DNA from: Candidatus Yanofskybacteria bacterium RIFCSPHIGHO2_01_FULL_43_32 | GTDB lineage: Bacteria > Patescibacteriota > Minisyncoccia > 2-02-FULL-40-12 > GWA2-44-9 | Direction: 5' to 3' | NCBI GenBank assembly: GCA_001794125.1 | Contig: MGJF01000002.1 | Location: 172,514-236,513 of the forward strand | DNA: 64,000 nt | Part shown: piece by piece, positions 2 to 55,396 of the stretch | Position numbering within the stretch: the stretch's first letter is position 1 | How the letters are laid out: each line of letters starts with the position of its first letter | Made by a program: the position numbers and the translations under genes | Notes under the pieces: generated by a model | Told to the model about the DNA's origin: nothing | The model's input: the letters and a program-made list of their open reading frames with translations, nothing else | The model's database searches: none

Positions 2-271
2 CAAATAGATATAGAAGCGTGGATGCCAGGACAGAATCGCTATCGTGAAACTCACACCGCAGACCTCATGACCGATTATCAGGCAAGGCGTCTCGGGATT
101 AAAGTAAAACGAGCCGGTGGAACAGAGTTTGTCCACATGAACGATGCTACGGCTTTGGCTCTTAGTCGAACCCCGATTGCCATCATGGAGAATTATCAAA
201 CTAAGAAAGGTACTATTGAGATTCCTAAAGTTCTTCGCAAATACATGGGCGGGATTAAAGAGATTAAATAA
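2..271 (+). CDS. serS: seryl-tRNA synthetase, C-terminal fragment (5' end lies outside the window)
   Basis: Translation ends ...TPIAIMENYQTKKGTIEIPKVLRKYMGGIKEIK, the class II SerRS C-terminal signature (ENYQ...G.IEIP.VL..YMGG). The frame is open to the window edge. Confidence 0.75.
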   Translation, partial: QIDIEAWMPGQNRYRETHTADLMTDYQARRLGIKVKRAGGTEFVHMNDATALALSRTPIAIMENYQTKKGTIEIPKVLRKYMGGIKEIK

Positions 272-507
272 TCGCTCCGCCCGACACCTTATTTCAGCCC
301 GTTCCGATTGCTCCAGCGATTGGCTCCACTTGTCCTCACGACGGCGGGTCCAGCCTGCCATATCATGATGTTTATTGAATAGCATTACTCATCTGACGGA
401 AAGCCTAAAGCTTGAATAGCTTCTCTCGCGAACTATGGCATGGACACCAAGCCCGCCTGTTCGGACGGGCTTCAATAAGATGCCGGGCTGCGCTTACTAT
501 TTTAGGC

Positions 508-649: not shown

Positions 650-956
650 ATATAACCAGTATATCATACTCGAATTAATATGTCAAGAGGGCGCAGTCCT
701 GTTGCTTTTATGTCACTTTGATGAGACGACAGATGTAGTTTAAGCGAGCCAGCCATATACCCCCAGGGAGAACTTGCGCAGGCATTTCGGCTTGGTTCTG
801 CGAAATGCCGAGCATGTAGATAGCGCCGAGCCGCTGGAGCGAGGCGACTATCGGTCGAGTCGGGGGTATGTGGCTGGGGGCGAATTAGAAAAATGATGGG
901 ACAGAGCGAAGTCACAGATATATAGTTGAAGTCTAAATTTTTGATATAATAATGCT

Positions 957-6832: not shown

Positions 6833-7261
6833 ATGTCCGACAGAAAGTTAATTATAATCATGACCTGTATCCTTGTTGTACCGTCAGTGGCCTTAGTAGC
6901 GATTATGGTTCTTATAGGCTTGGGTCGTGGCGACGGCATCGAACCCGGCAAGACATACGCCCTCGCTTACTCTTACAAGGCCACGATCAAGGGCGGGACG
7001 CCGGCTCGCGTGTTTGACTTCTCGGACAGGAGCCTTCCACGGACTTCCGTCGTGGTTCCGCTTCGTGATGACCGTGGCATGCCGCTGGTTGAAGAAATCT
7101 CGAGCATGCCTCAGAGCACGGTTCGGAAGGTCGTCGCCAGTGTTCCAACTCGGACAGTAGAAGGTGTGACCTATCCCGGCTACACTTACGTGGTGTGGCA
7201 ATACCACCTTAGCGTGGTTGGGTCGCAGAGCGTGGTCCCCGAAGTCATTCCCGGCAAGTGA
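6833..7261 (+). CDS. hypothetical small membrane-anchored protein carried on a GC-rich (probably foreign) segment
   Basis: N-terminal TM helix (IIIMTCILVVPSVALVAIMVLIGL). The ORF is ~60% GC, unlike the flanks. It has its own promoter and a multi-hairpin terminator. Overlapping ORFs on the other strand reflect the GC-rich composition. Confidence 0.4.
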   Translation: MSDRKLIIIMTCILVVPSVALVAIMVLIGLGRGDGIEPGKTYALAYSYKATIKGGTPARVFDFSDRSLPRTSVVVPLRDDRGMPLVEEISSMPQSTVRKVVASVPTRTVEGVTYPGYTYVVWQYHLSVVGSQSVVPEVIPGK

Positions 7262-7269
7262 GCGCAATC

Positions 7270-7326
7270 GCCCCGGAGGGCGTAACCAGAAATCGTGGTT
7301 ACGCTTCCTCCGGAGGCGGTTTTTTG
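7270..7326 (+). terminator. cluster of three GC hairpins ending in a T-run
   Basis: cgccccggagggcg, gtaaccagaaatcgtggttac and cctccggagg are followed by cggttttttg. Confidence 0.45.
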
Positions 7327-7363
7327 ATACTTTGAACTTTTATTGCCAATCATCATTTATCAT

Positions 7364-7452
7364 TTAAGCAACCGGCGGAGGGTGTATGTCTTTTTAAAAT
7401 TAGCAAATTTTTAAAAGGCATACCCCGCAGTATGCATGGAGGTTATGTGAGC
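7364..7452 (+). repeat. copy A of a ~90-nt structured intergenic repeat family (copies at 7364, 28755 and 29622)
   Basis: Shares ttaaRcaaccggcggaggg ... aaaattagYaaRatttt ... gcatRgagSttRtgtgaRc with the other copies. The central stem differs between copies but stays complementary: gtatgtcttttt/aaaaggcatac here versus gtgccccttt/aaaggggcac in copy B. Confidence 0.6.
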
Positions 7453-7516
7453 TGTTAAAAATGATGAGGCAGAGCTTGTGGAATATTGGTTTTTATTTTT
7501 GTGCTACAATTAAACC

Positions 7517-7921
7517 ATGACAGAATCAGGAGCTACAATTGAACAGGAGATAGCCCAACTGGAAAAACAGCTTCAGGAGAAGAAGGCGGGTTTAGAGCAA
7601 CAACCGGAACAAAAAGAATCATTGCCTGACAAGGAAGTTTTAAGAGAAGTTGTCGGCGAGAAGATTCAGCAGAACTCTCCCGCTTATATTCCCAAATCAG
7701 TACCACAAACGCAGACCGACGACACGAACTCTATTCCATCAGAACTCAAAGATAAGATTCAAGAACTTATTAATCATGTTTTTCAAAATAGTTTAGAACA
7801 GGGAATCAAGGAAGCCGTTAAATCAAACAACCCCGCCCTGATTGACGCTTTTCATGATGTTTTGGTTGACCAATTATACGACACGCTTTTAGAAAGAAAA
7901 AAACTTGACCCTATTAGCTGA
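7517..7921 (+). CDS. hypothetical coiled-coil protein (Gln/Glu-rich)
   Basis: A 134-aa ORF whose ATG directly follows a TACAAT -10 box. Its stop lies 5 nt before the downstream ATPase gene, so they are probably in one operon. Confidence 0.45.
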   Translation: MTESGATIEQEIAQLEKQLQEKKAGLEQQPEQKESLPDKEVLREVVGEKIQQNSPAYIPKSVPQTQTDDTNSIPSELKDKIQELINHVFQNSLEQGIKEAVKSNNPALIDAFHDVLVDQLYDTLLERKKLDPIS

Positions 7922-28743: not shown

Positions 28744-28754
28744 TAAATTTTATA

Positions 28755-28844
28755 GTTCACACAAGCTCTATGCGTACGGAGGGAGACGCCTTTTTAAAAA
28801 TTTACTAATTTTGTAAAAAGTGTCTCCCTCCGCCGGTTGCTTAA
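28755..28844 (-). repeat. copy C of the ~90-nt structured repeat, in inverted orientation
   Basis: On the minus strand it reads ttaagcaaccggcggagggagacactttttacaaaattagtaaatttttaaaaaggcgtctccctccgtacgcatagagcttgtgtgaac. The stem is extended relative to copy A (cggagggagac/gtctccctccg). Confidence 0.6.
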
Positions 28845-28915
28845 GTGGTTGGTGGCAACTGGCAATAAAAGTTCAAACTCTCTTCGAAACTGGCTTAAAA
28901 AGCCAGTTTTTGGTC

Positions 28916-29050: not shown

Positions 29051-29515
29051 ATGCCAGTCTTGAATATCGGTAGCAAGTCAGACGACTGGCGTGCCTGTCG
29101 CTTGAGCAATTTTTCAGCCGATGCTTTTGTGCTTGATGGAGAAAGAATGGCTTCTGTTGAGGGGTTCATTCAGGGGACGAAATTTCCTGATGGACACCCG
29201 ACTCGACAGCAGATATTTCAATCCGTCGGCGTAGAGGCAAAGCGGTTCGGAAAAAAGGCCGAGCGAAAGTTCGTCTGGTGGAATGGTCGAGCCATCTCCT
29301 ACGGCTCACCTGAACATCACGAACTCATCGAGAGGGCTATCCGTGCAAAGTTCGAACAGAATACAACCGCAATGGATGCTCTTCTGGCAACCAGGGGAAT
29401 GATACTAACGCATGACCTTGGCCATCCAGACCCGCCGAACACATCACTTCCAGCCAAAGTCTTCTGCGACATCCTGACCAGGATTCGTGAGGAGACTCTC
29501 CGGGCCCGTAAGTAG
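29051..29515 (+). CDS. NADAR (YbiA/DUF1768) domain protein
   Basis: RLSNFSADAFVLDGERMASVEGFIQGTKF matches the NADAR motif LSNF...F.LDG....S.EH..Q..KF. The ORF is ~58% GC, well above the flanks. Confidence 0.6.
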   Translation: MPVLNIGSKSDDWRACRLSNFSADAFVLDGERMASVEGFIQGTKFPDGHPTRQQIFQSVGVEAKRFGKKAERKFVWWNGRAISYGSPEHHELIERAIRAKFEQNTTAMDALLATRGMILTHDLGHPDPPNTSLPAKVFCDILTRIREETLRARK

Positions 29516-29621
29516 CGAAAGCGAAAGCGGGCTTTGTCATTTTAATATTAAGCAAGCGTAGCTCTTGCAACTTTATTTCATTTCTACCTTGAATCTTGCT
29601 TATTAATTATCAGCTATAAAC

Positions 29622-29711
29622 TTAAACAACCGGCGGAGGGTGTGCCCCTTTATAAAATTAGCAAGATTTTAGAAAGGGGCACACCGCAGCACGCATGGAG
29701 GTTGTGTGAGC
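29622..29711 (+). repeat. copy B of the ~90-nt structured repeat
   Basis: ttaaacaaccggcggagggtgtgcccctttataaaattagcaagattttagaaaggggcacaccgcagcacgcatggaggttgtgtgagc. A TATAAT box follows, immediately upstream of the next ATG. Confidence 0.6.
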
Positions 29712-29763
29712 AATTGAAATAAGGTGCTGGGTGGAGCGATTTTTTTTATGATATAATGAACCA

Positions 29764-30039
29764 ATGGGATTTTTCTTTAATACAAAACCGAAGGCAACAA
29801 AAGAGGAGTTCCAAAAAGTCAGGAACTATCTTTATTCGATGGGCTTTACTCACAAAGAACTGGAGCGAATCAAGGAGATTTTCCGTTCGGATCTGGATGA
29901 GTCCGCGAGTTATGAGCGAGGGATTTCCGGCGAAGAAATTGACAAAGGAATCCAATGGATGAGAGCCAATGTGAATATCCATCACATCTCTGCGTCTAAA
30001 ATAGATATTTTAGAGAAAGCCCTCAAGTCAAAGTTGTAA
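29764..30039 (+). CDS. hypothetical small protein (91 aa)
   Basis: An ORF directly after a TATAAT box, possibly leaderless. A palindromic terminator follows. Confidence 0.4.
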   Translation: MGFFFNTKPKATKEEFQKVRNYLYSMGFTHKELERIKEIFRSDLDESASYERGISGEEIDKGIQWMRANVNIHHISASKIDILEKALKSKL

Positions 30040-55131: not shown

Positions 55132-55396
55132 CCGCTCCGCCCCATTACCTCTCTCCAACCGTTCGCATTCCCCCGCGAGGAATGCTCACTTCATTCTCTG
55201 TCCGGATTTTGTCAAGTCCTTCGACAAGCTCAGGACTATGACAATCCGTGCAATCCGGATTCGAAAGATTGTCGAGAGGCAATGGGGCTGCGCGTTTACT
55301 AACCAAATATGAGCGAGGCCATTGCCATAAAAAGACATTTGAGACCCGGCCTTTTGCAGGGACGAGGCAGTATAATTATTCTGCACTGTCGAGAAT

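Follow-up and report, generated by a model that had tools for sequence, protein, structure and literature searches.

Intergenic hairpin repeats of bacteria have been the subject of general review (PMC3184786). The ERIC/IRU (enterobacterial repetitive intergenic consensus/intergenic repeat unit), Correia (NEMIS) and RPE-type (Rickettsia palindromic element) repeats of Enterobacteria, Neisseria and Rickettsia are non-coding imperfect palindromes of about 100-150 nt that fold into long hairpins; they occur in multiple copies, lie between genes in either orientation and may carry extra internal segments at set positions. In Correia elements the termini are 26-bp inverted repeats, and there is a TA duplication. 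The same general description applies to a repeat that is present in three copies (A, B and C) in a 64,000-nt stretch of DNA, referred to here as the window, from contig MGJF01000002.1 of Candidatus Yanofskybacteria bacterium RIFCSPHIGHO2_01_FULL_43_32. The three are members of a large, previously undescribed family of hairpin-forming repeats of the Candidate Phyla Radiation (CPR, or Patescibacteria). The CPR family differs from the ERIC, Correia and RPE repeats in its 38-nt unpaired 5' block and in its formation of pairs of unlike copies (heterotypic pairs) around genes; it has no sequence similarity to them and its hosts belong to another phylum.

Other described systems share different features with the family. 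The REP (repetitive extragenic palindromic)/REPIN-RAYT systems and the palindrome-associated transposable elements (PATEs) derived from IS200/IS605 are also hairpin-based and strand-specific, and they too are without target duplications or terminal inverted repeats. REPs are about 20-40 nt long with a GTAG head and form inverted doublets, RAYT genes are flanked by inverted REPs, and IS200/IS605 elements have same-strand hairpins at both ends. In contrast, the CPR unit has one 95-nt hairpin, the two members of a pair are on opposite strands at a distance of 0.2-3.5 kb, and among the 150 open reading frames (ORFs) nearest to copies there is no recurring Y1/HUH or RAYT gene. With the attC sites of integrons the family has in common a folded single-strand site, in which the base is conserved, the terminal structure varies and some bases are bulged, and an association with single-gene cassettes. 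Mobile insertion cassettes (MICs) and composites flanked by miniature inverted-repeat transposable elements (MITEs) likewise hold transposase-free passenger genes between inverted short repeats. MICs end in terminal inverted repeats of insertion sequence (IS) type, have target duplications and can be assigned to a cognate IS; no such attribute was found for the CPR family. The dif (pdif) modules of Acinetobacter plasmids are accessory-gene modules that lie between inversely oriented recombination sites, contain no internal transposase and owe their movement, it is proposed, to a host enzyme (PMC7399989, PMC13141974, PMC6449649). The sites that flank genes in the CPR are also inversely oriented, but they are 130-nt chromosomal hairpins of two types whereas pdif sites are 28-bp double-stranded XerC/XerD sites on plasmids. 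The apical region of the CPR hairpin, CCTTTTTAAAA-TTAGCAA-TTTTTAAAAGG, consists of inverted arms around an asymmetric spacer. The element is of a known kind, but its paired, two-type architecture is unusual.

The copies in the window are given below, where a type I stem is one with GTGTGCC.. and CCCCGCAGTCATGCAT, and non-I stems have GAGACAC.., GAGCATGC.. or TAGCGTGC...

7331..7458, plus strand: copy A, solo, with a type I-like stem; covariance-model match of 98 bits.
7331-7368, plus strand: unpaired 5' block of copy A.
7363-7458, plus strand: imperfect hairpin (P1+P2) of copy A.
28749..28877, minus strand: copy C, with a non-type-I stem (GAGACAC/GCGTCTCC with CCTCCGTACGCAT), the left end of a cassette; model match of 87.9 bits.
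29588..29717, plus strand: copy B, with a type I stem (GTGTGCCCC/GGGGCAC), the right end of the cassette; model match of 99 bits.

A preliminary description of this DNA had located A, B and C and quoted from their sequences, correctly in all three cases. It had treated them as a unit of about 90 nt, which captures the core of the repeat but not its extent: the repeat begins about 35 nt further 5' and the unit is about 130 nt long. Aligning the copies with their flanks shows that each opens with a conserved and unpaired 5' block, TTTGAAC-N-TATTGCCAA. This block had been overlooked, as had the relationship of C and B, which form one inverted pair bracketing a cassette, and the fact that such pairing is a rule of the family. 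The 19-nt 3' motif occurs three times in the window, where 0.04 occurrences are expected by chance, and the 14-nt 5' motif has three exact occurrences. With its filters off, the covariance model finds exactly three matches in the 64 kb, namely A, B and C. The RNA folding z-scores of the three copies are -2.9, -6.9 and -6.5, and folding with DNA parameters gives similar results.

Throughout the family, the unit consists of the 38-nt unpaired 5' block and an imperfect hairpin of about 95 nt, with the consensus (A)GTTTGAACYTCTATTGCCAATYRTCAYYTAnnnACCnAAGCAACC GGCGGAGGG (variable stem) AAAATTAGYAA (stem') CCCCGCAGTCATGCATRGA GGTTGTGTGARCTATT. Conservation drops sharply at both ends, the 3' limit being ..CTATT. 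From its base upwards the hairpin comprises a CAACC/GGTTG helix, a conserved asymmetric internal loop, a variable, covarying stem of at least 16 bp, and an AT-rich conserved tip with the apical loop AAAATTAGYAA. Optional modules are found at fixed points, each with compensatory changes of its own: one or two additional hairpins after AAAATTAG, a hairpin of about 40 nt between CCGGCG and AGGG (TGCCG..CGGCA in some copies, TGCGG..CCGCA in others), and insertions in the 3' strand. In one copy, at 35-130 (minus strand) of locus L155 (labels of this kind number the retrieved loci), the apical loop is inverted with respect to all other copies, reading AAAAGTTTGCTAATTTT for AAAATTAGCAAACTTTT, as if the tip had been flipped by recombination between its two arms.

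Covariation was measured in two sets of copies. The first, of 56 copies, was aligned with MAFFT, blind to structure, and was controlled by sliding the partners and by 500 shuffles. In this set 94.8% of cells pair, compared with 46-62% when partners are slid, and there are 57 double-sided changes compared with 9.2 in the shuffles, none of which (0/500) reaches 57. In the second set, of 134 distinct model-aligned copies, compensatory changes occur in 15 of the 25 pairs and amount to 204 cells, against 31.8 in shuffles; 95.6% of cells pair, again compared with 46-62% in slid controls. The preliminary description had remarked that the stems of A, B and C remain complementary despite their differing sequences, which is so, and had argued from this for selection on secondary structure rather than on sequence; the two larger sets bear this out far more strongly than three copies could. 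It had also called for a covariance model with a wider search, and for comparison with Rfam: both have now been run, with strong covariation as the outcome of the one and no matching family as the outcome of the other. The sense strand folds better than its complement in 96 of 107 distinct stems, and the structural alignment contains 236 G.U cells and 48 A.C cells. The G.U excess and the preference for sense folding imply that a specific one of the two strands is what folds, whether as RNA or as single-stranded DNA. Two additional structural features were considered and rejected. A pseudoknot between TATTGCCAAT of the 5' block and the apical ATTAGCAATA shows no covariation, TTACC being seen with both AGCAA and AGTAA. 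A long-range closing helix is not part of the element: the flanks of the same copy have a mean pairing energy of -12.5 kcal/mol compared with -12.4 kcal/mol between copies, and only about 10% of copies are enclosed.

More than 200 copies were found over all scans. A pattern scan with one genome per species yielded about 20 true copies, all in metagenome-assembled genomes (MAGs) of Patescibacteria: two labelled Saccharibacteria, one Yanofskybacteria, one unclassified, and one 'Patescibacteria group' in which at least 11 contigs carry copies. The other matches in that scan, from other phyla and two further CPR records, are chance ones. The window belongs to a Rifle-aquifer population; MAGs labelled Yanofskybacteria are among the records that carry its proteins, and close homologues of these proteins have the same annotation. 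A metagenome scan with a different anchor picked out more than 117 groundwater loci at least, and the covariance model makes 162 matches in 717 kb of retrieved loci. In the scans run, every true copy came from a Patescibacteria record or a groundwater metagenome. Between MAGs labelled Saccharibacteria and those labelled Yanofskybacteria, copies have some 80% or more of their sequence in common. The two conserved blocks nearly always occur together, and wherever the 5' block was found the hairpin was present too. In viral contigs, three pattern scans yielded no real copies, and a phage origin was rejected for this reason. The family does not correspond to a known RNA family either: at gathering thresholds Rfam 15 finds only five tRNAs in the window and only tRNAs in eight related loci, while permissive E-values around copy A bring up only generic microRNA-hairpin matches, the best with 24 bits against a cutoff of 160. 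A likeness of the 3' tail to twister ribozymes, and of the upstream CAGANGAG to the hammerhead core, has no match in Rfam and was dropped. Our literature searches on CPR repeats, MITEs and integrons turned up no account of the hairpin family.

Copies often occur as inverted pairs. Of the 128 distinct copies for which the 5' flank could be followed for at least 1.5 kb, 61 have an inverted partner in that flank at a distance of no more than 1.5 kb; an inverted partner on the 3' side is seen in 2 of 132, and direct partners number three per side. Members of a pair have their 5' blocks facing inward and their hairpin ends outward, with a gap that is mostly 0.2-1.0 kb and extends to 3.5 kb in L155. 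The partners are unlike one another: identity in the stem region is 0.70, compared with 0.79 for random copies, and none of 29 pairs is alike. In 33 distinct pairs, 26 combine a type I with a non-I copy and two combine type I with type I, for which the expected share is 0.49 (P=2e-6). Solo copies are mostly of type I. In the window, C (non-I) and B (type I) make an inverted pair around the ORF at 29051-29515, a gp30.3/NADAR-like gene. The cargo of the pairs as a whole lies on either strand and is diverse, including gp30.3/NADAR-like proteins, an M15 D-Ala-D-Ala dipeptidase, an S-adenosylmethionine (SAM) methyltransferase, DUF218, small unknown proteins and ribosomal protein S20. The L155 pair encloses four ORFs, which from reading of their translations, not from Pfam, are a C5 DNA methyltransferase-like gene, possibly a matching restriction enzyme, a Vsr-like gene and a fourth ORF. 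Two simple origins for the pairs were rejected. Independent insertion beside terminators predicts many neighbours in the same direction where genes are arrayed co-directionally, but we observe three direct and 61 inverted partners together with non-random heterotypy. Integration of a simple attP x attB type with crossover in the loop predicts, by reasoning, the same stem in both copies, which is almost never the case.

Orthologous sites in related genomes differ in whether they carry the element. The features of the window that are relevant here are as follows.

7303..7325, plus strand: intrinsic terminator of the upstream 142-aa ORF (hairpin cctccggagg and a T-run), also present in L166.
7459..7480, plus strand: 3' tail of copy A, aaaaatgatgaggcagagc, which resembles the tail motif ..AAAAGTGATGGGGCGGAGCG found after a subset of copies.
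28888..28912, strand not assigned: terminator-like bidirectional hairpin aaaaactggctttttaagccagttt adjoining the 5' end of copy C.
29051..29515, plus strand: cargo gene between C and B, 154 aa, with a Pfam match to Phage_30_3 (E=1.7e-29) and a weak NADAR match.
29550..29581, plus strand: left arm aagcaagcgtagctcttgcaactttatttca of an outer inverted repeat around copy B; duplex of -21.1 kcal/mol.
29715..29747, plus strand: right arm or tail ttgaaataaggtgctgggtggagcga, with a T8 run after it; other, unrelated structured inserts end in this tail as well.
29764..30039, plus strand: 91-aa ORF without a Pfam match, part of a block of about 1.35 kb that is absent from L160 and L161.

At the site occupied by C and B, the window has about 1.35 kb consisting of C, the gp30.3-like gene, B and the 91-aa gene. 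L160 and L161, whose neighbouring gene is 79-81% identical, have no element there: the convergent SLFN_AlbA_2 and nadA genes meet at one bidirectional terminator, 21-37 nt in length. A third relative, L162, has at that site another inverted pair around a different, 97-aa gene, and the ancestral terminator is retained just outside the right-hand copy. Copy A begins 5 nt beyond the terminator T-run. L166, with a neighbouring gene that is 89% identical, keeps an orthologue of the GC-rich ORF (62% GC) together with this terminator but lacks the element, and the tail at 7459-7480 lies inside the segment that is present in the window and absent from L166. The comparison thus shows copy A to be a solo insertion that, with its short tail, spans about 150 nt and is located 5 nt past the T-run. 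Another solo difference of this kind separates L045 from L102, and at several further sites relatives are either empty or have a unit of different size, presumably with different content. The family behaves as one that spreads horizontally.

The preliminary description had placed A and B directly downstream of GC-rich and probably foreign ORFs. Both ORFs are indeed richer in GC than their surroundings, and the one before B is genuine cargo that is missing from the same site in relatives; it has its own promoter, TTGCAA-N17-TATAAT. The GC-rich ORF upstream of A, by contrast, is not tied to the element because it is kept in L166, where the element is absent. It extends over 6833-7261 (plus strand) in the window and 3024-3443 in L166 and encodes a conserved protein of 139-142 aa that is predicted to be membrane-anchored and has no Pfam match; its GC content is 55-62% in the two relatives, whose genomes are about 42% GC. 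The boxes and start codons described downstream of A (TACAAT 7505-7510, ATG 7517) and B (TATAAT 29752-29757, ATG 29764) were confirmed. The genes 3' of A (7505-7519) and B (29752-29766) both start 6 nt past their -10-like hexamer, and L166 has the same layout in TATACT-N6-ATG; this spacing suggests that the mRNAs are leaderless. A homologue of the gp30.3-like gene in L170 directly follows a tRNA-like sequence at 2870-2945 (GCGGGGTCGTCTAATGGTAGGAC...CCAAGCCCCGCA) and has its own TTGACA promoter.

Given these properties, the family probably, though by no means surely, represents non-coding, non-autonomous elements that are mobile or recombine by way of a folded strand. The hairpin folded from one strand would be the part under selection, and it would be recognised by an enzyme acting in trans that moves or recombines the element, either as a solo copy or as the unlike ends, type I and other, of an accessory-gene cassette. 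The process would resemble those in which integron integrases act on folded single strands at attC, and HUH enzymes on folded single strands at IS200/IS605 ends and REPs. That movement is driven by a trans-acting enzyme that reads the folded strand is something we infer by analogy with attC, IS200/IS605 ends and REP/RAYT and, as regards architecture, with the Xer-dependent dif modules. The strand bias of the covariation, the two types of end and the lack of duplications point to such a folded-strand mechanism. Three options had been offered in the preliminary description, a non-coding RNA or cis-regulatory element, a recombination site, and a REP/MITE-like element; the second and third fit best with a sequence that is multi-copy, intergenic, in either orientation, variably present in relatives and shared to about 80% or more between differently labelled MAGs. 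A more specific proposal, which we put forward tentatively, is that the CPR possess a gene-cassette system in which two diverged types of 130-nt hairpin site form the cassette ends and a host or trans-acting enzyme works on the folded strand.

A number of observations weigh against mobility through a folded strand. Pfam scans of the 150 nearest ORFs reveal no recurring transposase or recombinase family, the top Pfam families of the 63 ORFs in the window include no recombinase or integrase, and no pair encloses a transposase-like gene. Target-site duplications do not exceed chance: flank matches within the same copy average 4.91 compared with 4.92 across copies (permutation p=0.57), and the longest common substring of the flanks is 5.61 with a control value of 5.54, an isolated 9-bp flank duplication being present in L045. 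Inspection of the consensus ends shows no terminal inverted repeats, TTTGAAC.. being unlike the reverse-complemented 3' end AATAGYTCACAC.., and the intergenic spacers of relatives are too diverged to give base-exact insertion junctions. The gp30.3-like cargo is also found in two other contexts that lack elements, with 86-89% nucleotide identity, which means that it is mobile in its own right and can move by other routes, and one pair brackets a housekeeping gene, rpsT. Tolerance of G.U pairs suits RNA as well as single-stranded DNA, and a strand-biased pattern of C-to-T mutation could add to the asymmetry between G.U and A.C. The element has the MITE-like traits of being small, non-coding, multi-copy and polymorphic in presence, but without target-site duplications and terminal inverted repeats it is unlike a classical MITE of the DDE type. 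A search for an autonomous version with a transposase between its ends came up empty; in every case the hairpin follows the 5' block, and the large pairs hold restriction-modification-like or housekeeping genes. The motif TTTCAGA lies upstream of part of the copies, and no fixed flanking tetranucleotide was established.

The alternative that survives best, although we consider it unlikely, is that the sense strand encodes a family of structured small RNAs, or a cis-acting RNA module, whose hairpin binds a protein or acts on transcripts. The covariation, with its many G.U and few A.C pairs, is compatible with RNA; so are the substitution paths in the stem that lead from Watson-Crick pairs through G.U to other Watson-Crick pairs, and the optional covarying helices at fixed junctions and at the apex, which are as in many structured RNAs. 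The conserved TTGAAC, often situated after a terminator, resembles the start of a transcription unit: a terminator-like hairpin with a T-run is found just upstream of the 5' block in 20 of 110 cases, about four times as often as in controls (5-6 of 110). However, a sigma-70 -10 element has no conserved position at any spacing from TTGAAC or TTGCCA, and base frequencies 16-20 nt downstream of the conserved TTGAAC show no A(-11)/T(-7) pattern, so a promoter in the 5' block was rejected; sigma-54-like spacing, TTGAAC-N5-TTGC, is present by inspection but without the invariant GG. No T-run (U-tract) follows the hairpin, which does not have the form of an intrinsic terminator, and the region downstream of the element has terminator-like sites no more often than background (5 of 110).

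The genomic setting also speaks against an RNA function. Copies are always intergenic, in short spacers at gene ends, and in either orientation to their neighbours, which are ordinary core genes such as those for Hsp70 (DnaK-type), MreB, a HolB-type DNA polymerase III delta' domain, FtsW and translation-factor GTPases. On the strand of copy C itself no gene lies downstream of it; the copy faces the end of a convergent gene, its 3' end being 7 nt past the stop codon of a 339-aa bPH_2/SLFN_AlbA_2 gene. With this arrangement, and with no conserved -10 after TTGAAC, the first of the three options offered earlier, a non-coding RNA or cis-regulatory element, is not demonstrated. Close relatives differ in the presence of the element, no Rfam family matches, the loop does not covary with the 5' block, and there is no obvious RNA rationale for the high copy number or for heterotypic head-to-head pairing. 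Mobility through a folded strand and a role as structured RNA are not mutually exclusive.

It is rather improbable that the family is a passive dispersed repeat that supplies portable homology for RecA-mediated exchange of cassettes after DNA uptake, its symmetry being maintained by gene conversion from arm to arm. Such a repeat would account for the occurrence of different cargo at the same site in related genomes and is in keeping with our finding no enzyme. It would also accommodate apparent products of homologous recombination, which the inverted apical loop of L155 resembles, as do the 3'-3' palindromic chimeras in L058, L099 and L074:4310-4440. These chimeras are located where relatives carry cassettes and speak for the folded-strand reading as well, being expected if the arms recombine; the explanation that fits them best is that two inverted copies recombined through their arms, which are direct repeats of each other. 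Gene conversion, however, would not favour G.U over A.C (236 versus 48), and passive homology leaves unexplained the clean solo insertions beside terminators, the sharp boundaries, the conservation of an unpaired internal loop and 5' block, and the avoidance of like-with-like pairs.

The likeness to integron attC sites, or to a cluster of attC sites lacking an integron integrase (CALIN), with the flanked genes as integron cassettes, extends to a conserved base with a top of variable length, a basal AAC...GTT, bulged bases, strand-specific folding and association with single accessory genes that may be promoter-bearing or promoterless. We nevertheless regard this identity as very improbable. 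The 7-mers AAGCAAC and GTTGTGT depart from RYYYAAC at two positions and from GTTRRRY at one, genes are bracketed by inverted copies (61, compared with three direct) rather than arranged in same-direction arrays, and attC sites lack the conserved apical loop and the 38-nt unpaired 5' block; moreover, the copies are dispersed among core genes, and the families of nearby ORFs include no integrase, nor was an attI site found. Finally, that the copies are transcription terminators or insulators which share sequence by chance is scarcely credible: they lie at gene ends, often with the 3' end right against a convergent gene's stop codon (in 8 of some 20 cases looked at) or else 45-100 nt before a co-oriented start, and both strands form long hairpins, but they have no U-tract, they adjoin ordinary terminators that are kept in relatives without them, and neither conservation across differently labelled CPR classes nor conserved unpaired segments would be expected.

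CPR bacteria have tiny, streamlined genomes, and little is known of how they gain and exchange accessory genes. The hairpin family is a candidate vehicle, or at least a marker, of this exchange: it is abundant, common to MAGs labelled as different CPR classes, marks hot spots of insertion and brackets accessory genes that include restriction-modification-like, phage-like and cell-wall genes. The covariance model is a tool for locating cassette boundaries in CPR metagenome bins, and because many copies sit at contig ends the family may help to explain breaks in assemblies. The cassette system, if it exists, would be a functional parallel to attC or Xer/dif modules that is structurally unrelated to them, and would account for the shuffling of accessory genes between ultra-small genomes in which no transposase or recombinase recurs among the ORFs nearest to copies. 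Its enzyme can now be sought by phylogenetic profiling.

Hairpins closely resembling aaaaactggctttttaagccagttt, with the sequence AAAAACCGGCCTTTTGAGCCGGTTTT, adjoin the 5' ends of copies at many unrelated loci. An outer inverted repeat like that of copy B surrounds only about 10% of copies, and related arms were seen elsewhere. Two structured-looking, non-coding inserts of about 230 nt each, at 270-497 (minus strand) and 684-915 (plus strand) of the window, have no Rfam match and are closed by a G.U-rich helix of about 14-20 bp whose two strands are the same arm motifs as those around copy B (AAGCGCAGCCCGGCATCTTATT ... AAATAAGGTGTCGGGCGGAGCGA and GCGCAGTCCTGTTGCTTTTATGTCAC ... AGAAAAATGATGGGACAGAGCGA). 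The two inserts are head-to-head, as main-family pairs are, with about 190 nt between them, and the first has homologues in L088. A third insert, of about 165 nt at 55133-55297 (minus strand), has arms of the same kind (cgcgcagccccattgcctctc ... gagagaggtaatggggcggagcg) and an unrelated interior. Further repeat families with the shared tail ..CAGAAAAGTGATGGGGCGGAGCG or ..CTGAAATAAGATGCTGGGGCGGAGC are present in L008 (minus strand, about 2450-2640), L015, L098, L106, L126, L083, L029 (two copies) and L010 (6270-6400). One of these has the interior CCAAAACAATAGGTCGAACGCC...GAGACGAGGAACCGTGAC and another takes the place of the 3' half of an element copy in L010; Rfam gave no match for these families. 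These inserts suggest that unrelated interiors may share one pair of terminal arms. Lastly, on the minus strand at 500-720, a consensus promoter (TTGACA-N17-TATGAT) precedes some 150 nt of GC-rich sequence that looks structured and has no ORF, beyond which are two terminator hairpins; this segment, for which Rfam gives no match at E<10, may be a small RNA gene.

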